DNA of 64,000 nucleotides from Minisyncoccota bacterium (GCA_041648395.1 JBAZPC010000003.1:12801-76800), one strand, 5' to 3'; positions 24,765-58,578 are shown, counted from the stretch's first letter. The notes: a model not told the origin generated them from the letters alone. Numbers and translations are program-made.

Positions 24765-25130
24765 ATGGAAAGCGAAATTGAATATCTTAAACAAAGGATT
24801 GCGGAGCTGGAGAAGCAGGACGTTAATAAAGAAAAGCCGGAGATAATAAAAGAGGCGATTAATGAGCATGTTGAAAAACAGCCGAAGGAGTTTTCCGGCG
24901 CGGAGCAAAAATTTTCCCAGCAGGAAATACAAGCACGCTCTCAAAAAATAAGTGAGATGAAATCGGGGGAGGCGGGACACAATGACCAGGTGGCCGAACT
25001 TCTTCAAATCGCGCATGATAAGGGAATCCTGAACGCCGTTTCTGTAGTTAGGGCGACAGACGACCCGCACCTTGAAGACGAATTTCACGACGCGCTGGTA
25101 AAATATTTCCAAAACGTTAAAAATGTTTAG
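24765..25130 (+). CDS. hypothetical coiled-coil protein (121 aa)
   Basis: Heptad-rich N-terminus. Overlaps the next gene start by 8 nt (operon). Confidence 0.4.
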   Translation: MESEIEYLKQRIAELEKQDVNKEKPEIIKEAINEHVEKQPKEFSGAEQKFSQQEIQARSQKISEMKSGEAGHNDQVAELLQIAHDKGILNAVSVVRATDDPHLEDEFHDALVKYFQNVKNV

Positions 25131-27540
25131 CTCCCAAATTTCTTTTTATATTTTTCTCTTGCTGGTATTTTTTTTAGTTGTTGTTATTCCCGCGTGGCTT
25201 TTGGCGGGCTATTTTAAAAAGAAAAAAGATATCAGCAAGGCGCTCAATCTTGTTCTCTTTGAAATAACTTTTCCCCAAACCGGCGGATTGCAGGAAGGCG
25301 AAAAGAAAAATTTCAAAGAACTGGTGGCGGCGATGGAGCAATTCTACGCCGGCATGTCTGCCTTCGGCCATTATTTCGCGCTTGAAATCGGCTTGCCTTA
25401 TTTTGGCGACGAAATAGTTTTTTACGCCGCTGTGCCCAAAGACAAAAGCCAACTTTTTGAAAAACAGGTACAAGGGCTTTATCCATTAGCAAGAACGGAA
25501 ATTAAAAAAGACGATTACAATATTTTTAGACCCCAAGGATATTCGTTCGGTACAATTATCAAATTAAAACAGAACGCAATTTTGCCGATTAAGACCTACG
25601 ACAAATTTGAACTGGACCCTCTCCAAATTATCGTCAATGTTTTTTCCAAACTGCAGAAGGAGGGCGAGGGGGCGGCGTTGCAAATTATCGTTTCTCCGTC
25701 CGACGATTCCATTATTAAAAAAGCGAAAACGGCGGCGTCCAAAATGAAAAGCGGAAAAAGTTTCAGAGAGGCAAGCCACGACAAAGGCCTGATTGGCGAG
25801 ATGATAGGTGATTTAGAAGCGGCGTTTTTTGGCAGTCCGCACAACGAGAAAAAAAATAAAGAAGAACCGAAACCAGTGGACGACGAAATAGTGAAGCTCT
25901 TGGAAAGCAAGGCGTCAAAACAGGCGATGCCGGCGAACGTCCGCCTCGTCATTTCCGCCGAAGACAAATCCAAGGCGGAACTTATTTTATCGGAATTGGA
26001 AAGCGCGTTTTTGCAGTTCAATGAAACGCAAGGGAACAGCTTTTATTTCATCCGTCCGTCCGGCCGCCGGCTCAAAAATTTCTTTCATGATTTTTCTTTC
26101 AGGATTCCCCGAAAAGACGACGCCATTCTTTTAAACACAGCCGAGCTTACTTCGCTTTTTCATTTTCCATCCGACTTCACCTCCGCCGTCGCGCCCCAGC
26201 TGAAATATTCGCGGCTGAAAGAAGCGGCGCCGCCGTTGAATCTGCCGCAGTCAGGGCTTCTTCTCGGCAAAAGCGTTTTCAGGGGCGAAGAGAAAAATGT
26301 TTTTATAAATGAAGACGACAGGCGAAGGCATTTTTACATCATCGGCCAGACGGGCACAGGCAAGTCCGTTCTGCTTAAGAATATGATTGCCCAAGACATT
26401 GAAGCGGGACGCGGTGTTTGCTTCATTGACCCGCATGGCTCCGACCTTCAGGATATTCTCTCGCGCATACCAAAAGAACGCGTTGACGATTTGATTTATT
26501 TCAATCCCGGCGATGTCCAGCGCCCGATGGGACTCAATATGCTTGAATACGACCAGAATTATCCGGAACAAAAAACTTTTATTGTCAACGAACTGCTCGG
26601 CATCTTTAATAAACTTTTTGATATGAAGACCGCCGGCGGACCGATGTTTGAACAATATTTTAGAAATGCCGTAATGCTGGTGATGGACGACCCCGCCTCT
26701 GGCAACACGCTTTTTGAAGTGAGCAGAGTTTTGAGCGACAAGGCATTCCGCGAGCTTAAATTATCAAAATGTTCCAATCCGATTACCAAATCATTTTGGA
26801 AAGAAGTGGCGGAGAAGGCGGGCGGAGAGGCGTCGCTTGCCAACATGGTGCCTTACATCACCAGCAAGTTTGATAATTTTCTTTCCAACGACATCATGCG
26901 TCCGATAATCTCGCAGGAAAAATCGGCATTCAATTTCAGAAAAGCGATGGACGAAGGAAAAATTCTGCTGGTCAATCTTTCTAAAGGGCGGCTCGGCGAC
27001 CTCAACTCAAATCTTCTCGGGCTTATCATTGTCGGCAAACTTTTGATGGCGTCATTGTCGCGCGCGGATATGGCGGAGAGCGAACGCAAAGATTTTTATC
27101 TTTACATTGACGAATTCCAAAACGTGACGACCGATTCCATCGCCACCATTCTTTCCGAGGCGAGAAAATATAAATTGGATTTAACTATCGCGCATCAATA
27201 TATCGGCCAGCTGGAAGAGAGCATCAAGAAGGCGGTGTTCGGCAACGTTGGTTCTATGGCGGCGTTTAGAATTGGTGCGGAGGACGCGGAATTTTTGAAG
27301 AATCAATACGAACCGGTTTTCAATTCTCACGACCTCCTCAACATTGATAATTACAACGCCTACCTTAAGCTTTTGGTGGAGGGTCAGACGTCGCGGCCGT
27401 TCAACATCCAAACCGTTGCGTTTAAAAAAGGCAACCCCGAGCTTGGCAAAATGATGGCGCAATTGTCGTCATCGCGCTACGGCAGGACAAAAATGGAAGT
27501 GGAAGAGGAGATAAATAAAAGATATAATATTCAGACATGA
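25123..27540 (+). CDS. membrane-anchored P-loop ATPase, VirD4/TraG/HerA(DUF87)-like, with an uncharacterised N-terminal domain
   Basis: TM helix. Walker A IIGQTGTGKS, IDPHGSD, Walker B LYIDEFQN, TIAHQYIGQL. N-terminal 300 aa paralogous to the 57406..58578 protein. Confidence 0.6.
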   Translation: MFSSQISFYIFLLLVFFLVVVIPAWLLAGYFKKKKDISKALNLVLFEITFPQTGGLQEGEKKNFKELVAAMEQFYAGMSAFGHYFALEIGLPYFGDEIVFYAAVPKDKSQLFEKQVQGLYPLARTEIKKDDYNIFRPQGYSFGTIIKLKQNAILPIKTYDKFELDPLQIIVNVFSKLQKEGEGAALQIIVSPSDDSIIKKAKTAASKMKSGKSFREASHDKGLIGEMIGDLEAAFFGSPHNEKKNKEEPKPVDDEIVKLLESKASKQAMPANVRLVISAEDKSKAELILSELESAFLQFNETQGNSFYFIRPSGRRLKNFFHDFSFRIPRKDDAILLNTAELTSLFHFPSDFTSAVAPQLKYSRLKEAAPPLNLPQSGLLLGKSVFRGEEKNVFINEDDRRRHFYIIGQTGTGKSVLLKNMIAQDIEAGRGVCFIDPHGSDLQDILSRIPKERVDDLIYFNPGDVQRPMGLNMLEYDQNYPEQKTFIVNELLGIFNKLFDMKTAGGPMFEQYFRNAVMLVMDDPASGNTLFEVSRVLSDKAFRELKLSKCSNPITKSFWKEVAEKAGGEASLANMVPYITSKFDNFLSNDIMRPIISQEKSAFNFRKAMDEGKILLVNLSKGRLGDLNSNLLGLIIVGKLLMASLSRADMAESERKDFYLYIDEFQNVTTDSIATILSEARKYKLDLTIAHQYIGQLEESIKKAVFGNVGSMAAFRIGAEDAEFLKNQYEPVFNSHDLLNIDNYNAYLKLLVEGQTSRPFNIQTVAFKKGNPELGKMMAQLSSSRYGRTKMEVEEEINKRYNIQT

Positions 27541-28172
27541 AGAAAAACGACTTAGTAATGGCTTTAGTTCTCGGCGAAGTTTGCGCTTGGTTGATGTTTT
27601 TAATAGGAAAGAATTTAGCATTGGAAAATCCGGCGATGGCGGTGGCTTTGCCGTATTTTAAGTATTTGCCGATTGTTTTTCCTGTTCTTTGCGCGCTTGG
27701 ATTGGCGGCAGCTTATTTCATCAGCAAAATAATCCCGATTGTTTATCAGCTCGGAAAATTTATTCTGGTAGGCGGAACGAATTTCCTCATTGATATGGGC
27801 GTGCTCAATTTTCTTATTTTTTACACCGGCATTTCCGCGGGCCTGCCGCAGTCGGGCTTCAAGGGAGTTTCTTTTTTGGTGGCCGTTTGGAATAGTTATT
27901 TTTTGAATAAATATTGGACATTCAAAAGGGAAACAACTGAAAGCGCGATGAAAGAATTTTCCCAATTTCTTATTGTCACACTCATCGGCTTTGCCATAAA
28001 TCTTGGCGTGGATTACGTTGCTGTTAATATGATAAACCCGCTGGGGGGAATGTTGCCGAAGACATGGGCGCAAGTGGGAGCGATAATTGCCGCCGTCACA
28101 GCGCTGGGATGGAACTTCCTTGGCTACAAATTTTTAGTTTTTGAAACGAAACCAAAAGAGGCGATAAAATAA
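27537..28172 (+). CDS. GtrA-family polysaccharide-synthesis membrane protein
   Basis: ILVGGTNFLIDMGVLNFL...NKYWTFK GtrA motifs. ATGA start/stop overlap with the upstream gene. Confidence 0.55.
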   Translation: MKKNDLVMALVLGEVCAWLMFLIGKNLALENPAMAVALPYFKYLPIVFPVLCALGLAAAYFISKIIPIVYQLGKFILVGGTNFLIDMGVLNFLIFYTGISAGLPQSGFKGVSFLVAVWNSYFLNKYWTFKRETTESAMKEFSQFLIVTLIGFAINLGVDYVAVNMINPLGGMLPKTWAQVGAIIAAVTALGWNFLGYKFLVFETKPKEAIK

Positions 28173-28178
28173 TTTTAA

Positions 28179-29225
28179 ATGAACAAATTAGCTTTATACC
28201 GAAAATACAGACCGAAGGGGTTTGACGAGGTGCTTGGACAGGACCACATCGTGAGCATCTTGAAGAACGCCGTCAAGGCGGGGCGCGTGAGCCACGCCTA
28301 CCTTTTTTCCGGTCCGCGTGGCACGGGCAAAACCAGCGTGGCGAGAATTCTGGCGAAAGAGATCGGCTGTTCCGACATTGACCTTCTAGAAATAGACGCC
28401 GCCTCCTCCCGCGGCATTGACGAAATCCGCGCTCTGCGCGACGCCACCCACTTCGTTCCCCTCCAAGGCAAGGTGAAGGTCTACATAATTGACGAAGTGC
28501 ACATGCTCACCAAGGAGGCGTTCAACGCGCTTTTGAAAACATTAGAAGAACCGCCAGAGCATGTCATTTTTATTCTTGCCACCACGGAACTGGAAAAAGT
28601 GCCGGAAACCATTATTTCCCGTTGCCAAAATTTTTCCTTCCGAAAAATTCCGGAAAATATTTTGCGGGATTCCGTTGTTTCCATTGCCAGAAAAGAGGGT
28701 TTTGATATGGATGAGGAGGCGGCGGGGCTGGTGGCGCTTTTCGCGGACGGTTCGTTCCGCGACAGCCAAGGCATGCTTGACCAAGTTTTTTCTTTGGGTG
28801 ACAAGAACCGCGACCATAAAATCACCGGCAAAGAGATAAGGGAATTTTTGGCGGTGCCGGCAGTGGAAATGGTGGAAAATTTTATCCTCTCAATAATTGA
28901 AAAGAATACAGAGAAGGGTTTGGAGATAATTCAAAAAACGGCAGAGCAAAATAATGACGCAAAAGTTTTTTTGAAGCTGATTTTGCGCGGCGTGCGCTCC
29001 TTGCTCATTTTGCGCCTCGCGCCGGGCATGCAGGAGAAGCTAAAAAAAGCGTTGGGCGAAAGGGAATTCAAATTTTTGGAAGAGCACAAAGACAAACCCC
29101 AGTCGGGCGAGATGGAAAGGGCGCTGAAAATCCTTTTGGACGCCCATGACGCGCGGTCGCGCTCCTATCTGCCTCAGCTTCCATTGGAGTTGGCGCTTAT
29201 GAGAATAACCAGCCAAGAAAATTGA
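28179..29225 (+). CDS. dnaX: DNA polymerase III subunit gamma/tau (short form)
   Basis: YRPKGFDEVLGQDH, GPRGTGKTS, IIDEVHML, SRCQ. Confidence 0.8.
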   Translation: MNKLALYRKYRPKGFDEVLGQDHIVSILKNAVKAGRVSHAYLFSGPRGTGKTSVARILAKEIGCSDIDLLEIDAASSRGIDEIRALRDATHFVPLQGKVKVYIIDEVHMLTKEAFNALLKTLEEPPEHVIFILATTELEKVPETIISRCQNFSFRKIPENILRDSVVSIARKEGFDMDEEAAGLVALFADGSFRDSQGMLDQVFSLGDKNRDHKITGKEIREFLAVPAVEMVENFILSIIEKNTEKGLEIIQKTAEQNNDAKVFLKLILRGVRSLLILRLAPGMQEKLKKALGEREFKFLEEHKDKPQSGEMERALKILLDAHDARSRSYLPQLPLELALMRITSQEN

Positions 29226-29233
29226 AATAAATT

Positions 29234-30130
29234 ATGAATATTGATTTTTTAATATCTGATTCCACTCTCAAATTTTTCGGAGCTATCCTTTTTGTTTTGC
29301 TTTTGGTGATGATTATTCTTATTGTCGCTTTGCAAAATTCAAGGAAACAAAACAGGGAACTCAAAATAAATAATTCGCGGTTGACCGAGGAAGAGAAAAA
29401 ATTCAAAGAGTTGGAAAAAACAAAGGCGGATTTCATTACCACCGTGGCGCATCAATTGAGAACGCCGTTGACCAAAATAAAATGGGCGTTTCAGGCGGTG
29501 GTAAGCGGGGAAGGGGGGAAAATAAGCGCGGAGCAGAAAAAAATCCTTCAGGTCGGAATGGAGGCGAATAATATGATGATAAAGCTGGTGAACGATTTGA
29601 TGGACATAGACAGGACAGACGACACCTACATGGGATACAATTTTGAAATCATTCCCTTGGGAATAATTATTGCCAAAGTCGTCCATGATTTTTCTTTTGA
29701 GGCGAAAGAGAAAAAAATTAATCTGGAATTTCTCATTTCCGACGAAGACACGCCGGACGTGAAAATTGACCAGGTAAAAATGGAGCTGGCGTTGAGCAAT
29801 CTTGTGGACAACGCGCTGGATTACACGCCGGAAGGCGGGGCGGTTAAAATCATTTTGGAAAAAATGGGGAATTATGCTAAGGTTTCCGTGAAAGACAGCG
29901 GGATAGGAATACCAAAAGAAGAGGCGGCGAATTTATTCACGCGCTTTTATCGGGCGAAAAACGCGGTGCGGATAAAAACGGAAGGCACGGGTTTGGGGCT
30001 TTACATTTCTAAAAACATAATAGAAGCGCACGGGGGAAAAATTTGGGTGGAGAGCCCTGCCTCGCCGAGTCAAGGCGGGGAAGAAAACAAAGGCGCGACA
30101 TTTTTCTTCACCGTGCCGTTCGCGATGTAG
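29234..30130 (+). CDS. sensor histidine kinase (HisKA + HATPase_c)
   Basis: TM helix. H-box FITTVAHQLRTPLT. N box LVDNALDYT. G boxes DSGIGIP, GTGLGLYISK. Confidence 0.8.
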   Translation: MNIDFLISDSTLKFFGAILFVLLLVMIILIVALQNSRKQNRELKINNSRLTEEEKKFKELEKTKADFITTVAHQLRTPLTKIKWAFQAVVSGEGGKISAEQKKILQVGMEANNMMIKLVNDLMDIDRTDDTYMGYNFEIIPLGIIIAKVVHDFSFEAKEKKINLEFLISDEDTPDVKIDQVKMELALSNLVDNALDYTPEGGAVKIILEKMGNYAKVSVKDSGIGIPKEEAANLFTRFYRAKNAVRIKTEGTGLGLYISKNIIEAHGGKIWVESPASPSQGGEENKGATFFFTVPFAM

Positions 30131-30181
30131 ATTTATATAAACTGGGGGACAACAAAGGACTTTGTAAAAAGTTTGTAGGTA

Positions 30182-31057
30182 TTAACTAATCGTTGAATTT
30201 TTAACTGGCCACAATTTTAAGTCTAATGAGGATACTTCTTTTTCTATTAGATTTAAATATTTTTTGAGGCCTCTTTTAGTAATAAAATCTATTATATAAA
30301 ACTCACCTAATCTCTCGGCACTTTCTTTGGCTATTTTACTATCAGGGTCAATTTTTTTTATCTCACTTACTTTATAACCACCAGTAAGACGAGAAAGCGA
30401 TGAAAAATCAAGTTTTTCATAATATGCTGGTGTTTCCAGTGCTGTTTGAAATTGTACAAGCTTTTTTTCTTTGACGATTATTTTCTTATCATAATTAGCA
30501 ACAAAAATTTTACCATTAAACAATGTGACGGGTAAGTAAATAGTAGGAACATCTTTTTTGTTGCGGGCAAACCATACTACTGCTTTTGGCAACTTGAACA
30601 CAGCCTCTGTTATTTGCAACGGTTCTATTTTTGATTTTTTACCCTTTTCTCTTCTATAAACAAGATAATTTTGTGCTAGAGAAAATTTAAAATTATATAC
30701 ATGCAAATCACTATACTCTTTGTTTTTTAAAATTTCTGTAGGAATTTCTGGCGAGTGTTTAAACTCATTATACTTACGTCGAGGGCTCTTTTGAGTGCAA
30801 ATAAAAACCCAGTCATCACCTAAATTTTGTTTACATTCAATGATAAGGTAAAGAGTGATACCATTTACCACTTTCGTGGCAATTAAATCAATTTCTCTCT
30901 TTTTTTCTTCGTCTGCGTCAAAAAAATATTGACTCGGAAAAACTTTGTATCCTTGTTTTTCTAAAAAATCTGCAGTCTCTAATTCCAAAACAAATCCGCT
31001 CTCATAGAGAAAATCAACTATTGCACTACTTTCACTTTTTTTCTTTTGTTTGAGCAT
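30182..31057 (-). CDS. hypothetical protein, possible PD-(D/E)xK nuclease fold
   Basis: EIDLIATK...LIIECKQ arrangement (D...ExK). Low-GC region next to tRNA-Gln and a GIY-YIG gene. Weak. Confidence 0.35.
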   Translation of the reverse strand: MLKQKKKSESSAIVDFLYESGFVLELETADFLEKQGYKVFPSQYFFDADEEKKREIDLIATKVVNGITLYLIIECKQNLGDDWVFICTQKSPRRKYNEFKHSPEIPTEILKNKEYSDLHVYNFKFSLAQNYLVYRREKGKKSKIEPLQITEAVFKLPKAVVWFARNKKDVPTIYLPVTLFNGKIFVANYDKKIIVKEKKLVQFQTALETPAYYEKLDFSSLSRLTGGYKVSEIKKIDPDSKIAKESAERLGEFYIIDFITKRGLKKYLNLIEKEVSSLDLKLWPVKNSTIS

Positions 31058-31086
31058 TTATTTGAATTCGTTAAAAACCTTACCAA

Positions 31087-31157
31087 CTGGGGGACATGGA
31101 TTCGAACCATGATTAACGGCTTCAAAGGCCGCTGTCCTACCATTAGACGATCCCCCA
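31087..31157 (-). tRNA. tRNA-Gln (anticodon UUG)
   Basis: U1-A72, G73. Acceptor TGGGGGA/TCCCCCA. Anticodon arm GCGGC-CTTTGAA-GCCGT. T arm CATGG-TTCGAAT-CCATG. Confidence 0.8.
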
Positions 31158-31162
31158 AAATT

Positions 31163-31411
31163 CTATATTTTTTCTAAAATACTTAATTTTTCTTTTGACC
31201 CTTTATAACTTTTTAAATATTTTTCTCTTTCCCTCGCATCCAGCCTATTCTGAAATATTTCTTTGTAAACTATTATAAATGGTGTTCTGCTTTTCGTCGA
31301 CCTTACAAAACCCTTATTATGATAATTTAATCTTATTATTAAGTCCTTGGTAATACCTACATAATAACCATTATCCTTTAAACTTTTTAAAATATAAACG
31401 TAGTAATTCAT
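31163..31411 (-). CDS. standalone GIY-YIG nuclease domain protein (YhbQ/COG2827-like)
   Basis: YYVYIL...GYYVGIT...R..H...E motif spacing. Starts 0 nt after the tRNA-Gln fragment. Confidence 0.7.
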   Translation of the reverse strand: MNYYVYILKSLKDNGYYVGITKDLIIRLNYHNKGFVRSTKSRTPFIIVYKEIFQNRLDAREREKYLKSYKGSKEKLSILEKI

Positions 31412-31454: not shown

Positions 31455-31525
31455 ATATTTTCGCCTTTTTTATTTTTAACATAAATTCGCCAATTTTGCT
31501 ATAATCTGTGCTATAATAAATTTAT

Positions 31526-33162: not shown

Positions 33163-33167
33163 ATTTT

Positions 33168-36364: not shown

Positions 36365-37063
36365 ATGATAATGAACTTTTTTAGAAAGGATTTAAACCTT
36401 AAAAATAGATGGTGGCACCGACTTTTGTTTGTTGCTTTTATTCTAGCTTTTGTCGTAGTTGTTGGTTTTAGTATTTCAAATATGTCGAACGATGCGCAAT
36501 TGCCGAAATATACAAAAGTCGGCATGTTGTCTGACCGCATGGATACAGAAATTCGCCTCATAGGTAATTTAGTTAAACCTGACGAAAAAATTGCCGTTCA
36601 TGAACATAATTTATACGGTTCATATCTTGGTGAAAGCTTTTATGACGGGAATGGCGGCTGGTTATTGGAACAAGAATATTATTGCTCAAAAAATATTTCT
36701 GACAAAGTTGAAGAGATTTCACGCCAAACTGGTATATATGACTATAGTGGTCCAAAAGATTACACCATCGGCGGCTCATTAGAAGATTTTAAAAAATATT
36801 TACTAAAAGTTAATGCGAATTGTGTGGACGTTAGAAAACTAGACCCTAGCGATCAAATTGGAAATGTAAAAACAGTACTTGGATGGGGACTAGAAGCAGA
36901 TGGAATGGCAGTATGGCAAGAATCGTTAATCAAATCTATTTTTGCAGTTTTGCAAACGCTATTCTTTATAGCTATCGGCTCCCTTGTTCTCTTGGTGCTT
37001 TATTATAAAGTTTTTCTTTACATCGTTTTTGGTCGCTGGAGAAACGATAAAGATAAAAATTGA
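36365..37063 (+). CDS. hypothetical membrane protein (N- and C-terminal TM)
   Basis: Extended -10 TGTGATAAAAT upstream. No motif. Confidence 0.4.
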   Translation: MIMNFFRKDLNLKNRWWHRLLFVAFILAFVVVVGFSISNMSNDAQLPKYTKVGMLSDRMDTEIRLIGNLVKPDEKIAVHEHNLYGSYLGESFYDGNGGWLLEQEYYCSKNISDKVEEISRQTGIYDYSGPKDYTIGGSLEDFKKYLLKVNANCVDVRKLDPSDQIGNVKTVLGWGLEADGMAVWQESLIKSIFAVLQTLFFIAIGSLVLLVLYYKVFLYIVFGRWRNDKDKN

Positions 37064-39933: not shown

Positions 39934-41550
39934 ATGGCAAGCAAAAAATTTGCAAGCAAAAAAATATTTTTGAATGTTGCCGCTATAATTTTTTCTTTGG
40001 GAATCATCAGTGTCGCCAATGCGGTGAACCCTTTTGATATTTCCTATCCCGTGGCGGAACTGGGAAATTGTGGTTCACAGGAAGAGTGTAAGTCGTTTTG
40101 TGACAATCCCGACAATCAGGTCGCGTGCGTTGAATGGGCGCAAGGCAAGGGCTTTGTGACGGAGGGAGAAGTTAAGCGGGTCAAGGACATGAGGAGATTT
40201 GATGATGGAGCAGCGCCGATAGAGGACTTCGGCCCTAATGGGTGCAAAACCCCGCAGGAATGTGACGCGTTCTGTAAGGTTTTAGAAAACTTAAACGAGT
40301 GTTTGAGTTATAGTGTTTCTCATGGGTATATGCCTCAAGAAGAGGCGGACAAGATATTGGCAAAAGTAAACAAAGGAGGCCCCGGCGGATGCAAGGGTCC
40401 GCAGGAATGCGATACATTTTGCCGCAATCCGGAAAATATTGAGACATGTATGAACTTTGCCGTTGAGGATGGGAAAATCAGCAAAGAAGAAGCGGACTTT
40501 ATAATAACCCAGACGAAAGAATTCGGCGCCGGACATGGAAGAAAAGGGGGGGCAGGAAAATCAGGCCAACAACGCGGACCGGCGGAACCGAAAATTGACG
40601 AGCAAAAAGCGCTAAAGGTCTTAGAAGAAAAAGGCGGAGGACCGGGCGGGTGCAAATCAATGGAGGAATGCGGAAATTATTGCGGCACTCCGGAACACGG
40701 AGAAGAGTGCATGAACTTTGCCGTTGAGAACGGATTCATGCCTCCGGAGGAAATGGAAAAAGCAAAAAAAATGATGACGATGGCAGGTCCCGGCGGATGC
40801 AAAGGTCCGCAGGAATGCGACGCATATTGCAGCCAGGAAGGCCATGGCGAAGAGTGTATGAATTTTTCTCTGCAAAACGGATTAGTATCGCCTGAAGAAG
40901 GGGAGAAAATGAAGAGAGAAATGGAAATTGTCAAAAAGCTTCAAGGGGGAGGAATGTCCGGCCCGGGCGGGTGCAAGGGTCCGCAGGAATGCCAGGCTTA
41001 TTGTTCGGACCAATCTCACATGGAGGAGTGCATGAGTTTTGCCACTCAAAACGGAATGATGAACAGAGGCGATGCTAATATGAGAATGCAACAAGTGCAA
41101 GACGCGCAATCAATGATACAAATGGGAGAACAAAGCAGACAAAGATTCATGATGCCTCCTCAAGGGGGCCTGCCCGATGGCAAGGCGGGCGAAATGGGTC
41201 CGCCTCCCGAAGGATTTCGGGGATTTATGTCGCCACCGCCTGGCAGTATGCAACCACCGCCACAAGGAGGAATGCTGCCTCCGGAAGGATACCAAATGCC
41301 GCCTCAGGGAATAATGCCACCAACGACAGGAGGAGGTTTTGTTCCGCCTGGGGGATTTATACCGCCGCCATATGGCAGTATGCAGCCGCCACCGGGAATG
41401 ATGCAGCCAGCGAATATGATGCCACCGGAAGGAATGATACAGCCACCGCCGACAAATATGATACCTCCTCCGCCATCAGAACTGATGCCGTCTACTAATT
41501 TACCTGGGCTTATTCTTAAGCCGTTTCTGGATATTTTTAGGGCTTGGTAG
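39934..41550 (+). CDS. secreted/anchored cysteine-rich repeat protein with Pro/Gln/Met-rich low-complexity tail
   Basis: Signal/TM at the N-terminus. About 7 repeats of ~45 aa: GPGGCKGPQECD(A/T)(F/Y)C...E(E/T)CMNFA..NG. C-terminal PPxG/MxPP tract. Confidence 0.55.
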   Translation: MASKKFASKKIFLNVAAIIFSLGIISVANAVNPFDISYPVAELGNCGSQEECKSFCDNPDNQVACVEWAQGKGFVTEGEVKRVKDMRRFDDGAAPIEDFGPNGCKTPQECDAFCKVLENLNECLSYSVSHGYMPQEEADKILAKVNKGGPGGCKGPQECDTFCRNPENIETCMNFAVEDGKISKEEADFIITQTKEFGAGHGRKGGAGKSGQQRGPAEPKIDEQKALKVLEEKGGGPGGCKSMEECGNYCGTPEHGEECMNFAVENGFMPPEEMEKAKKMMTMAGPGGCKGPQECDAYCSQEGHGEECMNFSLQNGLVSPEEGEKMKREMEIVKKLQGGGMSGPGGCKGPQECQAYCSDQSHMEECMSFATQNGMMNRGDANMRMQQVQDAQSMIQMGEQSRQRFMMPPQGGLPDGKAGEMGPPPEGFRGFMSPPPGSMQPPPQGGMLPPEGYQMPPQGIMPPTTGGGFVPPGGFIPPPYGSMQPPPGMMQPANMMPPEGMIQPPPTNMIPPPPSELMPSTNLPGLILKPFLDIFRAW

Positions 41551-45495: not shown

Positions 45496-46329
45496 TTACG
45501 GAAGTTGTATCTTTATTAATGCGTCCTCGTCCAGAATGTAAATAGAAGAGCTGTTTTTGTAAGTAATGAATATCGGGTCTTTTCCTTTATAAATCGGCTG
45601 TTTGGATTGCCCGCCCCTCTTGTCTATTTCCATGGCGAAGATGCCGTTTTGATAGGCGACGATGATGGCGTCTTTTCTTCCCGGATAGAAGTCCGCGTTT
45701 TTTATCTGACTTGGTGATTTAAATACAAGATTTTTACTTGTCTCCAGATAATAAGGCCGGGAATTTTCATCTCCGTTCCACTCAACCCAGATTCCGTTTT
45801 CTTTCCGGTTCCACCACAACTTTTGGCGGTCTCGGCTCACCAACCTTTCAATGGTCGTCGTTGATGTTGAAGAAATTTTCTTCGTTCCTTTTATTATGTT
45901 GTAGATATCGTCGTATTCGGTTTTTTGGAGAGGAGAAAAATTTTCGCGTTTTACAATTTCTCCGTCAATTTCTTTCGGCAGAAGCAATGCGCGAGCCTCG
46001 GCCACCATCTGGCTTTTGACTTCCATTTTTTTTGACCACGGCCAATATCCGTCTTTGGCTATCAAAATTGAATAAGTGTTCGGGCGCAGGCCGGAAAGAT
46101 AGAGGCCGCTCTGAATGATATTCGTTTCTTTTTCCAGCTTGTCGTTGACGAAAATTTGCGCGCCGGAAACAGGCGAGGCGACATAAAGCCCGCCGGTTTT
46201 TTTAAGCGTCCAGTTTGAGCCAAGCCGGTAGCCGTTGGAATAAAGAAGAACAACCGGTGCCGCGGCTAAAAAGACCAAAACGCAGATTATCAAAGCCATT
46301 CTCCTTTTCCCGATAGTAAGTCCTCCCAT
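45496..46329 (-). CDS. PEGA-domain membrane-anchored protein
   Basis: N-terminal TM. PEGA-like segment SGAQIFVNDK...YSILIAKDGYWPW. Confidence 0.5.
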   Translation of the reverse strand: MGGLTIGKRRMALIICVLVFLAAAPVVLLYSNGYRLGSNWTLKKTGGLYVASPVSGAQIFVNDKLEKETNIIQSGLYLSGLRPNTYSILIAKDGYWPWSKKMEVKSQMVAEARALLLPKEIDGEIVKRENFSPLQKTEYDDIYNIIKGTKKISSTSTTTIERLVSRDRQKLWWNRKENGIWVEWNGDENSRPYYLETSKNLVFKSPSQIKNADFYPGRKDAIIVAYQNGIFAMEIDKRGGQSKQPIYKGKDPIFITYKNSSSIYILDEDALIKIQLP

Positions 46330-50863: not shown

Positions 50864-50903
50864 AATGTTTGTAATTATAACTCAATTTTGTTATTTTGTT
50901 TTT

Positions 50904-51926: not shown

Positions 51927-52183
51927 AAATAATTGAAATTTTAGCATTAATAGCCGGTGTTGCCATGAGTTTCGCCAGTTATCCGCAGATATTTAAAATT
52001 TATAAGGCAAAAAGCGCACAAAATATTTCTTTAATCACATTTAGCATTTTTTTATTTGGATGCATTATTTGGATAATTTATGGCGTGAGTATTAAAAATC
52101 AACCGATAATTTTGAGTTATTCTATTGGACTACTTGGAAATTCAGGAGTTTTATTAGGGATACTAAAATTTAAGCGTTCATGA
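51923..52183 (+). CDS. SemiSWEET / PQ-loop family small membrane transporter
   Basis: 86 aa, three TM helices, SYPQIFKIY PQ motif. Confidence 0.6.
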   Translation: MKIIEILALIAGVAMSFASYPQIFKIYKAKSAQNISLITFSIFLFGCIIWIIYGVSIKNQPIILSYSIGLLGNSGVLLGILKFKRS

Positions 52184-52755
52184 AACAAAAAAATATTATT
52201 CAATTACTAGAATTGTTGTCTGAACTGGACGGATTAAAAAATATACAAAGGCTTAGTCCTGTAAAAGGAAGAAAATTAGCGGAAAACGATGCAGAACATA
52301 CATGGCATACACTAATGTGGTTTTTGCTTTTAGAGCCGTTTTTAGAAAAGAAAATAAATTCTGAAAAAATTTTAAAAATGATTTTAATTCATGATTTGCC
52401 GGAAATTTATACAGGAGATATAGTGGCTTTTTCTAAAAACCATACCCATACTAAAAAAGAACATGAAGGGGCCAAAAAAATATTCAAAAAATTTCCCAAA
52501 CAAATAAATAAAAAATACTTAAATTTATGGAAAGAATTTGAAAGCAACAAAACAAAAGAAGCAAAAATTGCGAAAGCATTAGATAAACTTCAGCCGCTTT
52601 TACAGCACACAGAACTGGAATGGAAAGGGTGGAAATGGACGAAAGAAAGTATAAAAGTTGTAGAAAAAAACAAAAGAAACCATATTGAATTTAATAATAC
52701 TCTTTTGGATATCTATGAGTATTTGATAAAAAGAGCCCACAAAATATCAAAATAA
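52180..52755 (+). CDS. HD-domain phosphohydrolase (YfbR-like)
   Basis: AEHTWHT...ILIHDLPEIYTGD HD motif. Confidence 0.65.
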   Translation: MKQKNIIQLLELLSELDGLKNIQRLSPVKGRKLAENDAEHTWHTLMWFLLLEPFLEKKINSEKILKMILIHDLPEIYTGDIVAFSKNHTHTKKEHEGAKKIFKKFPKQINKKYLNLWKEFESNKTKEAKIAKALDKLQPLLQHTELEWKGWKWTKESIKVVEKNKRNHIEFNNTLLDIYEYLIKRAHKISK

Positions 52756-52864
52756 TCACCCAATCCCTATTCTACCTAAAAAGGCCGATCGGCCCACAGA
52801 GGGAGAATGGGAAAAATAAAAAAGCTAACGGAAAAACCATTAGCTTTTTAGCGCACCCAGAAAA

Positions 52865-53104
52865 TTATTTTAAAAGAAGTCCACCGAGTTTTTCTCCACT
52901 TAATTCGTACTCGATTTGCGACTTGTAAATTTCTTCATCTTTGTTGGTGGGGATAGATGCGAGAGCAACCATGTATCCCAAAAGATATGATCTTCTCGCT
53001 CTGAGAACTTTTATTTCCTCGGCAATGCGCTCTTTTTTTGTTCTTTTTTGATCAAGAATAAAACCAAGAGCAAGTAAAACGATGCCTATAAAAATAATCT
53101 CCAT
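52865..53104 (-). CDS. hypothetical small membrane protein
   Basis: N-terminal TM. RBS GGAGG. Confidence 0.35.
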   Translation of the reverse strand: MEIIFIGIVLLALGFILDQKRTKKERIAEEIKVLRARRSYLLGYMVALASIPTNKDEEIYKSQIEYELSGEKLGGLLLK

Positions 53105-53131
53105 AACGACCTCCTATTTTACTGTTAATCT

Positions 53132-53211
53132 GCAAGATTTTATCCCACCAAGGCAAGATTTTATCCCACCAAGGCAAGATTTTATCCCACCAAGGCAAGA
53201 TTTTATTCTGC
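53132..53211. repeat. intergenic 21-nt tandem repeat GCAAGATTTTATCCCACCAAG, 3 perfect units plus 1 partial
   Basis: Units at 53132-53152, 53153-53173, 53174-53194, partial 53195-53211. Lies in the divergent promoter region between 52865(-) and 53286(+). Confidence 0.75.
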
Positions 53212-53285
53212 GATGAGTATAGCAAATTGTCAAAAAAAGTCAAGGGTTTTGTAAAAAAGTTATAACAAGAGTATAATATCGTCAT

Positions 53286-53834
53286 ATGAAAAACATAAAA
53301 AAATGGGTATTGGCAATTTCTATTGTAGTCGTTTTGAACTTATTTTTTAATTACGGAATCTATACATTTTATAAAAATCCAAAATTTGAAAATTTTTGCA
53401 AACCGGAATTAAACAGCAATTTTTACACAACGAGGCAAGCATGTGAAGCGGTTGGCGGTTTATGGAATGAAAATTTTCCAAAAGCTGTTCCGATGCCGGC
53501 GGCTCCCGCTGAAAATGTCCGAACGGGAAATATCCAAACCGGCTATTGCGACGTTTATCACACCTGCCAGAAAGATTTCAATAAAACTGAAGCTATTTAC
53601 AACAGAAATGTTTTTATTATTTTAGTGCCACTCGGATTAATTTCTCTAGTAGTGGGATTACTGATGGGAATTTCTGGAGCCGTTTCAACAGGGCTCTCCT
53701 TCGGCGGTATTTTGTCCATGATAATCGGCTCCATAAGATATTGGTCTGACATGAATGATTACTTGAGGTTCGGTTTGCTCGGAGTGGCGCTTATTATTCT
53801 CATCTGGCTGGGTATCAGAAAATTCAAGGATTAG
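53286..53834 (+). CDS. hypothetical membrane protein
   Basis: N-terminal TM, Cys-containing ectodomain, two C-terminal TMs. Confidence 0.4.
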   Translation: MKNIKKWVLAISIVVVLNLFFNYGIYTFYKNPKFENFCKPELNSNFYTTRQACEAVGGLWNENFPKAVPMPAAPAENVRTGNIQTGYCDVYHTCQKDFNKTEAIYNRNVFIILVPLGLISLVVGLLMGISGAVSTGLSFGGILSMIIGSIRYWSDMNDYLRFGLLGVALIILIWLGIRKFKD

Positions 53835-53838
53835 AAAA

Positions 53839-56352
53839 ATGAATCCGTACAGCCATAAAAAAATTGAAAAGAAGTGGCAAAAGTATTGGGAGAAAAATAA
53901 ACTTGACCAGGCGAAAGATTTTTCCAAAAGGCCTAAATATTATTGTCTCGTAGAATTTCCTTATCCGTCGGGAGACGGCTTGCATGTAGGCCACACTCGA
54001 AGCTATACTGCCATGGATATAATTGCCCGCAAAAGAAGAATGCAGGGCTACAACGTGCTTTATCCCATGGGCTGGGACGCTTTCGGTTTGCCGACGGAAA
54101 ATTACGCTATTAAAAAAGGAGTTCACCCAAGCGTTATTACAAAAAAGAATACAGATAATTTTAGAAGGCAATTAAAATCATTAGCTTTTTCTTTTGATTG
54201 GAGCAGGGAAATAAATACTACCGACCCGAAATATTATAAATGGACGCAGTGGATATTTTTGCAGCTTTTTAAGAAGGGCTTGGCGTACAAGCATAAAATG
54301 CCGATAAACTGGTGCTTGTCTTGCAAAGTCGGTTTGGCGAACGAGGAGGTGGTGGACGGCAAGTGCGAGCGTTGCGGGGGGCAGACGGAAAAAAGGGAAA
54401 AAGAGCAATGGATGTTGGCCATAACGAAATACGCCGACCGGCTAGATAAGGATTTGGATCCGCCAGCTGGCGGATTAGATTATCTGGAAAAAATAAAAAT
54501 CCAGCAGAGAAATTGGATAGGGAAATCAGAAGGAGCGGAGATTGAATTCAAGATTCAAGATTCAAGTTTCAAGTTTCAAGTTTTTACCACACGCGTTGAT
54601 ACTATTTTTGGTTGCACTTATGTAGTTGTTGCGCCCGAGCATGAGATAATCTCAAAACTAAAATCGCAAATATTAAATCTGAGCGAAGTTGAAAAATATA
54701 TTAATGAAGCGAAAAGAAAATCAGACCTGCAAAGGACGGAATTGCAAAAAGAAAAAACTGGCGTTGAATTGAAGGGCATGAAAGCCATTAATCCTTTCAA
54801 TAATGAAGAAGTGTCGGTGTTTGTGGCGGACTATGTTTTGGGGCATTATGGCACAGGCGCGGTAATGGCCGTCCCCGCGCACGACGAACGCGATTTTGAA
54901 TTCGCGAAGAAATATGGATTACCGGTGCGGCAATCGGTCGCCAGAAATTCTAATTTCTTAAGGACGGACGACGAGGGAAATCCTACGAAATCAGAAATTT
55001 CTGGCTCCCTTAGTGAGTGTTTTGTTGAAGATGGCGTCCTTGCTGATTCCGGCCAGTTTTCCGGCCTGACTTCTGCCGAGGCGTGCGGGGAGATGGTGAA
55101 ATGGCTGGAGGAAAAGAAGTTGGGGAAAAAAGTGGTTAAATTTCACTTGCGCGACTGGGTTTTCTCCCGCCAGCATTATTGGGGCGAGCCGATACCGATA
55201 GTGAATTGTCCAAAATGCGGCCTAGTACCGGTGCCGGAAAAAGATTTGCCGGTAAAATTGCCTGATGTAAAAAAATACGAACCGACTGACACGGGCGAAT
55301 CGCCGTTGGCGGCTATTTTAAAATGGGTGAATGTAAAATGCCCGAAGTGCAAAGGTCCGGCAAAAAGGGAAACCGACACCATGCCAAACTGGGCGGGATC
55401 GTCTTGGTATTATCTCGCATATTTAATGCTCGAAAATAAAAAATCAAATCTCAAAAATCAAAAATATGTTTGGGATAAGAAAAAATTAAAATATTGGATG
55501 CCCGTTGATTGGTACAACGGCGGAATGGAGCACACAACTTTGCATTTATTATATTCACGATTTTGGAATAAATTTTTATTTGACATCAAGGCGGCGCCGA
55601 CAAGCGAGCCGTATAAAAAAAGAACTTCGCATGGAATGATACTTGGACCGGACGGAGAGAAGATGTCCAAGTCGCGCGGCAATGTGATAAATCCGGACGA
55701 TATGGTTTCCGCTTATGGCGCAGACGCTTACCGTTTGTACCAAATGTTTATGGGGCCGTTTGATCAAGCGATACCATGGGACCCGAAAGGCATTGAAGGC
55801 ACGAGTAGGTTTTTGGGAAGAGTGTGGAAGTTGTTATCAGCCGTCAGCTATCAGTCGTCAACCAAAGAGCAAAAGCTGAAAGCTGAAAGCGGAAAGCTGA
55901 AGACTTTATTGCACAAAACCATCAAAAAAGTTTCTGAAGATATTGAAAGCATGCGGTTCAACACAGCTGTCAGTTCACTCATGATTTTATCAAACGAGAT
56001 GGAGAAACAGGAAGAAATACTGACTACTGATTACCTAATACTGGTTACTCTTTTAAGTCCTTTTGCTCCTCATATCTGCGAAGAAATTTGGAGCAAGCTT
56101 GGTAACAAAAAATCAATCTTTTTGGAAAAATGGCCGAAGTTTGATTCCCAAAAAATAAGAGAAGATAGTTTTGAATTGGTGATGCAAGTGAACGGCAAAG
56201 TGAGAGACAGGTTTGAGGCGCCGACGGATATTTCCGAAAATGACGCCATGTTATTGACATTGAAACGCGAAAATGTTAAAAAGTGGATAGGCGATAAACA
56301 AGTCAAAAAAGTCATATTTATCCAAAATAAGCTGATAAATTTAATAGCATAA
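53839..56352 (+). CDS. leuS: leucyl-tRNA synthetase
   Basis: HVGHTRSYT (HIGH), KMSKS. Editing domain. Carries the 18-bp palindrome and two heptamer tracts. Confidence 0.9.
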   Translation: MNPYSHKKIEKKWQKYWEKNKLDQAKDFSKRPKYYCLVEFPYPSGDGLHVGHTRSYTAMDIIARKRRMQGYNVLYPMGWDAFGLPTENYAIKKGVHPSVITKKNTDNFRRQLKSLAFSFDWSREINTTDPKYYKWTQWIFLQLFKKGLAYKHKMPINWCLSCKVGLANEEVVDGKCERCGGQTEKREKEQWMLAITKYADRLDKDLDPPAGGLDYLEKIKIQQRNWIGKSEGAEIEFKIQDSSFKFQVFTTRVDTIFGCTYVVVAPEHEIISKLKSQILNLSEVEKYINEAKRKSDLQRTELQKEKTGVELKGMKAINPFNNEEVSVFVADYVLGHYGTGAVMAVPAHDERDFEFAKKYGLPVRQSVARNSNFLRTDDEGNPTKSEISGSLSECFVEDGVLADSGQFSGLTSAEACGEMVKWLEEKKLGKKVVKFHLRDWVFSRQHYWGEPIPIVNCPKCGLVPVPEKDLPVKLPDVKKYEPTDTGESPLAAILKWVNVKCPKCKGPAKRETDTMPNWAGSSWYYLAYLMLENKKSNLKNQKYVWDKKKLKYWMPVDWYNGGMEHTTLHLLYSRFWNKFLFDIKAAPTSEPYKKRTSHGMILGPDGEKMSKSRGNVINPDDMVSAYGADAYRLYQMFMGPFDQAIPWDPKGIEGTSRFLGRVWKLLSAVSYQSSTKEQKLKAESGKLKTLLHKTIKKVSEDIESMRFNTAVSSLMILSNEMEKQEEILTTDYLILVTLLSPFAPHICEEIWSKLGNKKSIFLEKWPKFDSQKIREDSFELVMQVNGKVRDRFEAPTDISENDAMLLTLKRENVKKWIGDKQVKKVIFIQNKLINLIA
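54458..54475. repeat. 18-bp perfect palindrome ATCCGCCAGCTGGCGGAT inside leuS (encodes DPPAGG)
   Basis: Self-complementary. Related copies at 11468-11483, 15289-15304, 44415-44430, 62793-62809. Confidence 0.85.
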
Positions 56353-56368
56353 GAAAATAAACAATATA

Positions 56369-57403
56369 ATGGTTATTCTTTCGTTCAACCCAAAAGACGT
56401 TAATAAGAATTTAACCTCTGTTTTAAACGACAGAGCGAGAGACATAATTCTCCAGCGTTACGGCATGGCCAAGTCGCCGGAAAGAAAAACCCTTGAGGCT
56501 ATCGGCCAGGTTTACGGCATCACCCGCGAGAGGGTGAGGCAGCTTGAGAATTTCGCCCTTAATTCCATCAGACAGAGCAAAAATTTTTCAACCCAAGAAG
56601 ACGCGTTGGCGGAGCTGAACGATTATATCTCAAAAAAAGGAGGCCTTTTGTCAGAACAAGATATTCTTAATGAGTTATCAGATAATGGAGACCAGTATAC
56701 TAAAAATAATATTTACTTTTTGCTTGTTCTCGGAGACGATTTCAAAAAAATAAAAGAAGACGATTATTTCAACCATCGCTGGACGACTAACGAAGGCAGA
56801 GCGCAAAAAATCCACGAAGTTTTAGACAAGCTCCATAAAAAAGTCAAAGAAGATATTTTATTGGCAGAGAAGGAAATAATTTCCATCACGCAAGATTATG
56901 CGAAAGATGTTATGGGAGAAAAGACAAAAGACGACATTGTCCGTTCCTGGCTCAATATGTCAAAAGTGGTTGATAAAAATGTTTTAGGAGAATGGGGAAA
57001 TGTAAAATCGTCAAACATTCATCCGCGAGGTGTGCGCGATCTCGCCTTTACGGTTTTGAGAAAAAACGGATCGCCCATGCACTTCAGTGAAATAACAAAA
57101 GCGATATCCGAAATTTTTCCTAAAAAAGCGCACCCTGCCACCGTTCACAATGAACTCATCAAAGATTCGCGTTTCGTTCTTGTCGGACGCGGCATGTATG
57201 CCCTGAAAGAATGGGGATACGCTTCAGGCACGGTTCGCCAGATAATCAAAAGTATTCTTAAGTCATCCGGACCCCTCACAAAAGAGGAAATTATAAAGAA
57301 AGTCCTGAAAGAACGATACGTGAAAGAAAACACCATTTTGGTAAATTTGCAAAACAGCAAATATTTTAAGAGAAATAAAAACGGCGCTTATTCAGCTGTT
57401 TAA
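56369..57403 (+). CDS. sigma-70 region-4-like HTH domain protein (344 aa)
   Basis: LNDRARDIILQRYGM...TLEAIGQVYGITRERVRQLEN resembles sigma70 r4. Remainder unknown. Confidence 0.5.
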   Translation: MVILSFNPKDVNKNLTSVLNDRARDIILQRYGMAKSPERKTLEAIGQVYGITRERVRQLENFALNSIRQSKNFSTQEDALAELNDYISKKGGLLSEQDILNELSDNGDQYTKNNIYFLLVLGDDFKKIKEDDYFNHRWTTNEGRAQKIHEVLDKLHKKVKEDILLAEKEIISITQDYAKDVMGEKTKDDIVRSWLNMSKVVDKNVLGEWGNVKSSNIHPRGVRDLAFTVLRKNGSPMHFSEITKAISEIFPKKAHPATVHNELIKDSRFVLVGRGMYALKEWGYASGTVRQIIKSILKSSGPLTKEEIIKKVLKERYVKENTILVNLQNSKYFKRNKNGAYSAV

Positions 57404-57405
57404 TT

Positions 57406-58578
57406 ATGCCAGCTTTTATTCAGGATATTTTTATTTTAACCAAGGGTTTTTTATTTGAGAATTGGTATTTCTTTTTACCGCTTTTTCTAACCCTTGTTTT
57501 TTGGGATTTTTGGGTAAATTATATTAGGACCAAATTTATTTATAATCTCAAATGGACCACTTTGGAAGTGAAATTGCCGAGGGAAATAACAAAGAGTCCG
57601 CGGGCGATGGAGATTGTCTTAAATATGTTCCATCAAACAAAGGATGGAAATTTTTGGGAAAAATATTGGTTAGGATTTTTGAGGCCGTGGTTCAGCTTGG
57701 AAATAGTCGGCATCAACGGAGAAATTCATTTTTTTATTTGCACTCAATCGTTTTTTAGAAATCTTATTGAGGCGCAGATTTACGCCCAATATCCGGAAGT
57801 GGAAATCGTGGAAGTTGAAGATTATTCCAAAATGGCTTTTACGGAAGGCCTTGGCACAGAATGGGGATGTTTTGGGACGGAGTTTGAACTTATAGCGGAA
57901 GATGCTTATCCCATAAGAACTTATGTTGATTACGGCCTTCATGAGACATTGACTAAGGAAGAGCAAAAGAGCGATCCTATGACCTCCTTTATTGAGCTTC
58001 TCGGCTCTTTGAAAGAAGGGGAGAATATTTGGTTTCAAATTTTAATACGAGCGACAAAAAAGGAATGGAGAGATGAAGGCAAGGCGCTGATTGACGAAAT
58101 AATGGAGAGAGGTAAAAAACTTGCTGAAGGGGAACAGGCGAAAAAATTATCTTCTGGCGAGATAGAAATAATAAAAGCAATTGAGCGCGACGTCTCTAAG
58201 CTTGGCTTTGACGTGGGGATAAGGGCGCTTTATCTTGCCAGAACAGATAAATTTAATGCCATAAATATTTCATCAATAATAGGTTCAATGAAGCAATATA
58301 ATGCCGTGAATTTAAACGGCTTTAAGCCGGCGCGCGCAACTTCTTTGGACTATTGGTGGAGATTGAAAAAGTGGCGGGAGCCAAGAATGAAAATAAAAAT
58401 GATGGATGCCTATAGAAAGCGCTCGTATTTTTATGTGCCTTATTCGCGCAAGCCGTTTGTTTTAAACACCGAAGAGTTGGCGACGATTTTTCACTTCCCG
58501 GGCAGGGTGGCAGAAACCCCGACCTTCGGCAGGATTGAAGCGAAGAAGGGCGAACCGCCGGCGGGCTTGCCCGTATAG
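57406..58578 (+). CDS. membrane protein paralogous to the N-terminal domain of the 25123..27540 ATPase
   Basis: Shared blocks FSLEIVGINGEIHFF / FALEIGLPYFGDEIVFY, and FVLNTEELATIFHFPG / ILLNTAELTSLFHFPS. Confidence 0.5.
   Translation: MPAFIQDIFILTKGFLFENWYFFLPLFLTLVFWDFWVNYIRTKFIYNLKWTTLEVKLPREITKSPRAMEIVLNMFHQTKDGNFWEKYWLGFLRPWFSLEIVGINGEIHFFICTQSFFRNLIEAQIYAQYPEVEIVEVEDYSKMAFTEGLGTEWGCFGTEFELIAEDAYPIRTYVDYGLHETLTKEEQKSDPMTSFIELLGSLKEGENIWFQILIRATKKEWRDEGKALIDEIMERGKKLAEGEQAKKLSSGEIEIIKAIERDVSKLGFDVGIRALYLARTDKFNAINISSIIGSMKQYNAVNLNGFKPARATSLDYWWRLKKWREPRMKIKMMDAYRKRSYFYVPYSRKPFVLNTEELATIFHFPGRVAETPTFGRIEAKKGEPPAGLPV

Follow-up and report, generated by a model that had tools for sequence, protein, structure and literature searches.

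A DUF8128 domain fused to a coupling-protein-type ATPase and its standalone, mltG-linked paralogue in a Patescibacterial genome

The stretch of DNA analyzed here, 64,000 nucleotides from a Minisyncoccota bacterium (GCA_041648395.1, JBAZPC010000003.1:12801-76800; hereafter the window), encodes two proteins that share the Pfam domain DUF8128 (PF26449). In the first, which we call the fused protein, the domain lies between an N-terminal membrane helix and a P-loop motor of the type found in the coupling proteins of type IV secretion systems (T4SSs). The second, the standalone protein, carries the domain behind an N-terminal hydrophobic helix and has no ATPase. Both open reading frames (ORFs) are found where the original prediction, made from the sequence alone, had placed them, and they encode 805 and 390 residues, respectively. 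The coordinates of all features are collected in Table 1.

DUF8128 and the motor of the fused protein

The N-terminal part of the fused protein and the standalone protein are collinear paralogues, as had been predicted. In BLASTP, fused residues 71–375 align with standalone residues 84–389 (24 % identity, E=4e-12). When profiles are compared with hhalign, that of the standalone family only (A3, 76 sequences) matches that of the fused family (A2, 84 sequences) over 315 columns with Prob 99.9 % and E=1.2e-32, pairing standalone residues 38–390 with fused residues 31–377, which gives a collinear shared domain of about 340 residues. A lack of significance in such a profile–profile comparison had been named beforehand as a possible refutation; given the values found, the shared domain is therefore real, and these sequence comparisons confirm its paralogy. 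The AlphaFold models of the two proteins have their predicted secondary-structure elements in the same order, and both proteins have phrog_5156 as their PHROG match, which covers the fused protein over its full length (2.7e-79).

The sequence blocks from which the paralogy was originally read are present, although their spacing was given slightly wrong (the fused protein has G-D-E-I-V-F and YP....EI; the EGE block reads EGE....QI). The standalone copy does stop at the domain boundary: its C-terminus, …EPPAGLPV, occupies the position of …APPLNLPQSG in the fused protein, about 30 residues ahead of the Walker A motif. Both paralogues conserve the tail LNTEELATIFHFP…PPxNLP, which in the fused protein runs directly into the motor.

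The claim that the domain is uncharacterised and its function not annotated is not supported. The domain is DUF8128 in Pfam, the ATPase is routinely named as a T4SS-type protein, and VirD4-type homologues have been catalogued by the thousand in Patescibacteria (PMC12102498). For the window proteins, the DUF8128 assignment comes via PF26449 precomputed on homologues, not from a model score of their own; the domain is annotated on close homologues (85–91 % identical) and on all listed relatives of both proteins. DUF8128 is not mentioned in the literature that we searched. PF26449 is found on over 6,300 homologues of the standalone protein, 7,965 relatives of the fused protein are found at E<=1e-10, and the domain profile matches 4,793 clusters (50 % identity, E<=1e-3). 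Among matches with a source name or record title, nearly all come from Patescibacteria (Parcubacteria/Paceibacteria lineages). The standalone family has 16 invariant columns in its 76 sequences, at identities down to 32 %.

The Walker A motif and the IDPHG, IDEFQN and AHQYIGQL motifs noted in the original prediction are all found in the fused sequence. In Pfam, the fused protein passes TrwB_AAD_bind (25.5 bits vs a cut-off of 20.5), T4SS-DNA_transf (24.1 vs 20.1 bits, residues 394–701) and DUF87 (27.8 vs 23.2 bits), the last over only the P-loop segment 401–439; TraG-D_C is matched as well. FtsK_SpoIIIE stays below its cut-off (17.5 vs 24 bits) and covers only the P-loop region, residues 392–423. 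HerA is not matched (NF040819, 15 vs 970 bits; HerA_C, 14.3 vs 22), nor are the VirB4 families (AAA_10, 13 vs 27.5 bits; VirB4_CagE, 17 vs 643). The best PDB sequence match of the fused protein is TrwB (E=5e-4). In its AlphaFold model (predicted local distance difference test [pLDDT] score 89.3, predicted template-modelling [pTM] score 0.80), the C-terminal half superimposes on TrwBΔN70 with a root-mean-square deviation of 4.3–5 Å, 16–18 % identity and TMt 0.63–0.68 (Foldseek). These alignments span 407–441 columns, against chains of 411–427 residues, and thus cover nearly the whole chain. The model also predicts an all-helical insert, residues 483–610, between strands 457–460 and 614–618, at the site of the all-alpha domain of coupling proteins.

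The Pfam passes and failures, together with the predicted superposition on TrwB, therefore indicate that the motor is of the coupling-protein type (TrwB/VirD4/TraD) and not an FtsK/SpoIIIE or HerA orthologue. The motor class first proposed, FtsK/HerA/VirD4, is right in that the protein belongs to the T4SS coupling-protein (T4CP) branch, VirD4/TrwB/TraD, of the FtsK-HerA ATPases and passes T4CP models; the FtsK and HerA models themselves are missed, and an ordinary FtsK or SpoIIIE orthologue, which had been named in advance as a refuting outcome, is excluded. Among the NCBI names of fused homologues are ‘type IV secretion system DNA-binding domain-containing protein’, ‘TraM recognition domain-containing protein’ and ‘DUF87 domain-containing protein’.

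Fold comparison places the predicted structure of DUF8128 near a different T4SS ATPase. The nine top Foldseek PDB matches of the standalone model (pLDDT 89.9, pTM 0.87) are all R388 TrwK/VirB4 chains (E 8.3e-6 to 2e-3, prob >=0.99), and the matches ranked below them are unrelated alpha+beta proteins. At full length, the fused model matches TrwK across some 900 columns (E=1.9e-15); the fused two-domain layout is therefore collinear with VirB4, as judged from the model. At the profile level, the fused family matches a TcpF-type VirB4 profile of 14 sequences (Prob 97.3 %, E=2.1e-11) in an alignment that starts at fused residue 262, or 145 residues ahead of Walker A. Matches of DUF8128 in the viral structure library are Bacillus phage Slash U5Q0H6 (1.9e-17), gp156 of phage G (5.5e-17), phage JL (5e-16) and gp155 of phage G (4e-8). 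A Pfam scan of the 82 members of a DUF8128 set, A1, gave scattered chance matches only, none of them to a VirB4 N-domain family. With hhalign, DUF8128 profiles found nothing in pSK41 TrsD (E=0.69 with A1), pSK41 TrsE or phage G gp155, at a sensitivity that is low because these templates are single sequences. We conclude that the models support a VirB4 N-domain-like fold for DUF8128, which is not the same as proven homology.

An N-terminal transmembrane helix had been predicted for both proteins. It is clear in the fused protein (Kyte-Doolittle 19-residue maximum 3.06, residues 1–33) but borderline in the standalone protein, whose aromatic-rich helix reaches 1.56 at residues 22–40, though most of its family lies higher (median 1.8–2.0; at least 1.6 in 84 % of 50 %-cluster representatives). 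Among database orthologues of the fused protein, the helix is present in 88 % of 59 that are about 800 residues long and in 0 of 60 of about 920 residues. Because the ATPase must be cytoplasmic to meet its need for ATP, and the single helix is followed by KKKK, we infer from the positive-inside rule that DUF8128 of the fused protein is cytoplasmic and membrane-proximal. This topology makes an extracellular role in envelope recognition unlikely. The envelope- or substrate-recognition module of the original prediction also fits poorly with the VirB4-N-like predicted fold and with the many orthologues that have no membrane helix.

Gene contexts and relatives on mobile elements

The neighbors of the standalone gene do matter, as the original prediction had implied. 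Across the loci of 80 GTDB species sampled at 38–71 % identity, mltG lies directly downstream in 72, with a median gap of 4 nt and a gap of at most 30 nt in 64 of the 72. A gene for a sigma-70 region 4/HARE-HTH protein lies upstream in 74 of the 80, at a median distance of about 100 nt. In the window, just 2 nt separate this gene from the standalone gene, where 3 nt had first been stated. The upstream protein is itself a hybrid, with sigma-70 region 4 at its N-terminus and a HARE-HTH region resembling RNA polymerase delta.

Three loci (L012, L083 and L087) have a motor-only gene of 546–634 residues directly after the standalone orthologue, in the place of mltG. These motor-only proteins are 41–45 % identical to fused residues 376–803 and start exactly at the domain boundary. 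The one at L012 matches TrwB_AAD_bind (2.3e-13) and ends in a treble-clef zinc finger (zf_Tbcl_2, Pfam), the cysteine motif of which is also seen in the L083 and L087 sequences. Judged by sequence, each pair amounts to the fused protein split naturally into two genes, and these splits are the strongest indication that the standalone platform cooperates with a motor of this kind.

At the fused locus, the 8-nt overlap with the upstream ORF (25123..25130) and the 4-nt overlap with the GtrA gene (27537..27540) are as originally described. The upstream ORF encodes a soluble helical protein, cc121, that has no Pfam, NCBIfam or PDB match. We examined the fused-gene contexts of 80 metagenomic relatives, which fall into 33 loci with an approximately 800-residue protein, as here, and 47 with a protein of about 900–930 residues. 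A separate cc121 gene lies directly upstream in 22 of the 33 short-form loci. Homology (E down to 4e-16) also links cc121 to the first ~130 residues of the long-form orthologues, in which the cc121-like region is fused straight to DUF8128 and replaces the membrane helix. Because it is separate and upstream in the short form and N-terminally fused in the long form, cc121 is a genuine accessory module of the fused ATPase system, and the attention originally drawn to this coiled-coil ORF was well placed. The GtrA neighbor is less general than had been implied: it is found downstream, next or next but one, in 14 of the 33 short-form loci (some of which are truncated), but it is absent from the long-form loci, where the ~920-residue subgroup sits after secY-adk-map.

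Two of the long-contig assemblies carry fused genes broken into two or three ORFs (L006 8001..10777 and L007 8001..10767); these breaks are probably assembly frameshifts. Such truncated entries, along with genes cut off at contig ends, may account for the fact that nearly all proteins of our first domain search fell short of full length.

The window around both genes holds only housekeeping genes (clpB, miaA, miaB, parB, relA/spoT, topA, dprA, serS and ftsQ, along with holB, typA, mreB, priA, fmt, def, leuS, mnmA and alaS). No T4SS, pilus or relaxase genes are present in the 64 kb, and the guanine-plus-cytosine (GC) content is uniform. Scans of IMG/VR returned one partial match for DUF8128 and none for a VirB4 relative. 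Both DUF8128 genes are chromosomal. Given the housekeeping surroundings, the uniform GC content, the synteny in 80 species and the near-empty IMG/VR scan, the best explanation is that the fused protein has been domesticated in Patescibacteria.

More distant relatives are found on mobile elements. A tblastn search against plasmids returned 624 records, 293 of them from Bacillus. On a 27.5-kb B. subtilis plasmid, an 885-residue DUF8128-ATPase (Prob 98.7 %, E=3.9e-16 against A3 in hhalign) heads a Tcp/ICEBs1-type conjugation cluster, in the order DUF8128-ATPase, Replic_Relax, TcpC, TcpE, AAA_10 VirB4 and a large membrane protein. A linear replicon of Embleya (Streptomycetaceae; L172 1339..8548) encodes VirB4, an 819-residue protein with a helix, an N-domain and a T4CP motor, Replic_Relax, and a hydrolase with SLT and NlpC/P60 domains. 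In Bacillus phage G (L169 4192..8334), gp155, which is VirB4-like (P-loop_TraG, AAA_10 and a weak CagE_TrbE_VirB match in Pfam), adjoins gp156, a DUF8128-ATPase. Phage G gp156, phrog_5156 and the 885-residue proteins named ‘DUF87’ from small Bacillus plasmids all combine DUF8128 with a motor, and a tblastn alignment covers residues 92–804. They differ from the window protein in being only 23–26 % identical and in lying on mobile elements beside VirB4-like, TcpC/TcpE or relaxase-like genes.

Because of these gene orders in the Bacillus plasmid, Embleya and phage G, we conclude that, in one class of monoderm mobile elements, VirB4 has the fused architecture as its coupling-protein partner and that the lineage is conjugative in origin. 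These monoderm relatives agree with the published conclusion that monoderm conjugation systems gave rise to the T4SS of Patescibacteria (PMC12102498).

Three further observations concern these elements. The Embleya lytic transglycosylase near a coupling ATPase resembles the pairing of DUF8128 with mltG in Patescibacteria. The genes of the Embleya cluster are all missing from the PLSDB gene table of that record. The gp155-gp156 pair amounts to a conjugation-style ATPase pair in a giant phage, in which gp156 is mis-annotated as MsbA-like.

Table 1. Location of the features discussed; coordinates are those of the window unless a locus is named
Feature	Coordinates	Strand	Residues	Description and basis
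cc121	24765..25130	+	121	soluble helical protein
Fused protein	25123..27540	+	805	membrane helix, DUF8128 and coupling-protein-type P-loop motor
Membrane helix of fused protein	25135..25209	+	~5-29	Kyte-Doolittle
DUF8128 of fused protein	25213..26253	+	~31-377	hhalign to standalone family
Coupling-protein-type ATPase domain	26254..27537	+	378-805	Foldseek to TrwBΔN70, PDB sequence search
Walker A (GQTGTGKS)	26344..26367	+	408-415	read from sequence
Predicted helical insert	26569..26952	+	~483-610	AlphaFold model
Walker B (FYLYIDE)	27094..27114	+	658-664	read from sequence
GtrA-family membrane protein	27537..28172	+		Pfam GtrA_DPMS_TM 4.2e-21
Sigma-70 region 4/HARE-HTH protein	56369..57403	+		Pfam Sigma70_r4 2.8e-14, HARE-HTH 1.1e-11
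Standalone protein	57406..58578	+	390	N-terminal hydrophobic helix and DUF8128, no ATPase
Hydrophobic helix of standalone protein	57463..57528	+	~20-41	
MltG/YceG endolytic transglycosylase	58603..59253	+		Pfam YceG 1.7e-51
Motor-only gene, L012	4885..6789			directly after standalone gene
Motor-only gene, L083	7355..8995			directly after standalone gene
Motor-only gene, L087	1942..3729			directly after standalone gene
Short form of fused gene (33 loci)			~800	serS-ftsQ-PMT-PMT / cc121-fused-gtrA-holB
Long form of fused gene (47 loci)			~900-930	no membrane helix, cc121-like N-terminus; after secY-adk-map, before ndk

A proposed translocase with a docking platform and its alternatives

Of the features of known systems, the fused protein shares with VirD4, TrwB and TraD the RecA-like P-loop motor, the Walker A and B motifs, the predicted helical insert, the T4CP family matches and, in TrwB, its best PDB sequence match and a close predicted fold; its same-architecture homologues lie beside relaxase-like genes in the Bacillus plasmid and, less securely, in Embleya. 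However, those coupling proteins have a two-helix membrane domain with a short external loop, whereas the fused protein and its orthologues have one helix or none plus DUF8128, and the fused gene is chromosomal among housekeeping genes, with no relaxase or T4SS neighbor. With VirB4 (TrwK; TcpF/ConE), the fused protein shares a length of about 800 residues, an N-terminal alpha/beta domain with a C-terminal ATPase, and the top Foldseek match of both the DUF8128 and full-length models. It differs from VirB4 in a motor sequence that is nearer to coupling proteins and in having no VirB3, VirB6 or VirB8 neighbors. For the standalone protein there is a precedent in TrsD of pGO1/pSK41, which matches the N-terminal part of a T4SS ATPase and has no motor. 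TrsD homologues, however, mostly adjoin virB4 (PMC12102498), whereas the standalone DUF8128 gene adjoins mltG.

We propose that the fused protein is a coupling-type translocase with a DUF8128 platform, conjugative in origin and since domesticated, and that the standalone protein is a motor-less, membrane-anchored version of that platform; we consider this reading probable, though far from certain. In this model, the motor would assemble into a ring and translocate some polymer, of which nucleic acid, the default for the family, is the likeliest. DUF8128 would serve as a membrane-proximal platform for docking and oligomerization, tethered by the membrane helix in this lineage or joined to soluble cc121 in others. 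The standalone protein, presumably co-expressed with the cell-wall cutter MltG, would recruit a motor in trans or co-assemble with the fused protein, and the LNTEELATIFHFP…PPxNLP tail is a candidate docking element. A DNA-transfer-type function is a plausible role.

Several of our results weigh against this reading. An important caveat is that the link between DUF8128 and the VirB4 N-domain rests on predicted structures and fold comparison, in which the TM-scores of the standalone model to TrwK/VirB4 are just 0.35–0.41 (best match TMq 0.41). Profile comparisons limited to the N-domain, the ATPase having been cut off, are not significant (E=0.09, E=0.25, and E=5.9e-4 at Prob 29 %), the A3 profile has no PDB sequence match, and CagE_TrbE_VirB is matched by none of the 82 members of A1. 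The fused protein also falls far under the cut-offs of the NCBIfam coupling-protein equivalogs, the best being SXT_TraD with 55.3 bits (4e-15) vs 366. Among the gene contexts, the Embleya N-domain match to DUF8128 is collinear but weak (Prob 12 %, E=0.0025), those of the fused gene differ between subgroups and indicate no substrate, and the window contains no motor-only gene, so the trans partner of this standalone copy is not seen.

As one alternative, a T4SS encoded elsewhere could have the fused protein as its working coupling protein, which would feed substrates to it, with the standalone protein as a TrsD-like accessory. The family assignment and conjugative relatives fit this idea, coupling-protein genes often lie far from virB4 (PMC12102498), and T4SS genes occur widely in Patescibacteria and proved essential in the only strain examined. 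Yet only 148 of the 5,713 VirD4-type homologues counted in 2,918 Patescibacteria genomes, about two per genome, lie near virB4, and in that strain, Ca. S. epibionticum ML1, the VirD4-type homologue is non-essential, unlike other T4SS genes (PMC12102498). The lack of any T4SS gene in 64 kb, the many orthologues that have no membrane anchor, the undetectable similarity to pSK41 TrsD and the pairing of the standalone gene with mltG rather than virB4 point the same way, and we regard a distant T4SS as unlikely. The authors of that survey noted that exaptation of VirD4-type homologues ‘cannot be ruled out’ (PMC12102498). The tight, conserved coupling of the standalone gene to mltG could instead reflect a role in cell division or wall growth, in which the fused protein would pump DNA like FtsK or act as an ATPase of envelope assembly and the standalone protein would regulate MltG. 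Such a role might also be read from ftsQ and two PMT-type glycosyltransferase genes upstream of the fused gene and GtrA downstream, here and in orthologous loci, and from MurJ upstream in L006. It is still less probable than a distant T4SS: the motor is not FtsK-type, the ~920-residue subgroup lies between secY-adk-map and ndk, away from division genes, and housekeeping blocks can keep their order with no functional link.

Least probable of these is a paralogy that has no present function, in which the standalone protein is a degenerate duplicate or the pair is the relic of a conjugative element or prophage. The relatives on plasmids and in Bacillus phages might suggest such an origin, but the family represented by the standalone protein is large (4,793 clusters), invariant at 16 columns and syntenic in 80 species, no integrase or relaxase is adjacent, and the uniform GC content and nearly empty IMG/VR scan leave this alternative largely refuted. 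A mobile-element relic in particular was rejected on the uniform GC content and class-wide synteny. A defence-system reading was also rejected, PADLOC having returned nothing beyond a generic P-loop match to mad8 outside any defence context.

A bolder version of the translocase model, which we rate as a long shot, takes DUF8128 to be a VirB4-type N-domain kept in a coupling lineage, a VirB4–VirD4 intermediate that is now a T4SS-free core machine. An MltG-coupled platform with one or two motors would then move nucleic acid across the envelope. If true, this machine could be an uptake route for host DNA or RNA in Patescibacteria, which form a large share of bacterial diversity and cannot make nucleotides. 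A 2026 preprint reports that a cultivated member of the phylum takes up host RNA by an unresolved route; any link between this uptake and DUF8128 proteins is speculation on our part.

The orphan VirD4-type homologues of Patescibacteria gain an anatomy from this analysis: a VirB4-like predicted N-domain, an optional helix or cc121, and an MltG-coupled motor-less paralogue with split versions. A coupling protein with a VirB4-like N-domain would bear on how the two sister ATPases diverged in T4SS evolution. Relative to the literature that we searched, it is new that DUF8128 has a VirB4-like predicted fold, that the fused architecture comes from conjugation, that cc121 is a module, and that a motor-less paralogue with natural split versions is coupled to mltG; the DUF8128 entry in Pfam and the catalogue of the ATPase family were already known.

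Other features of the window

A 618-residue ORF on the minus strand (23256..25112, TTG start) overlaps plus-strand cc121, and its PMT_2 glycosyltransferase match starts well inside the ORF. Translation probably begins instead at the Met near 24749 (MEEWLRKNRT…), in which case the overlap disappears. Five ORFs of 232–538 residues have no Pfam match (E<=1e-3 or 1e-4): 7342..8148 (+), 30182..31057 (-), 36365..37063 (+), 39934..41550 (+) and 45496..46329 (-). The stretch 8001..12000 has the lowest GC content of the window (0.366), and a XerC/D-type tyrosine recombinase lies beside miaA at 9151..9987 (-). Finally, dprA, a gene of DNA processing in transformation, lies directly upstream of topA at 15088..18151 (-); the window therefore includes a competence-type gene, unlinked to both DUF8128 loci.

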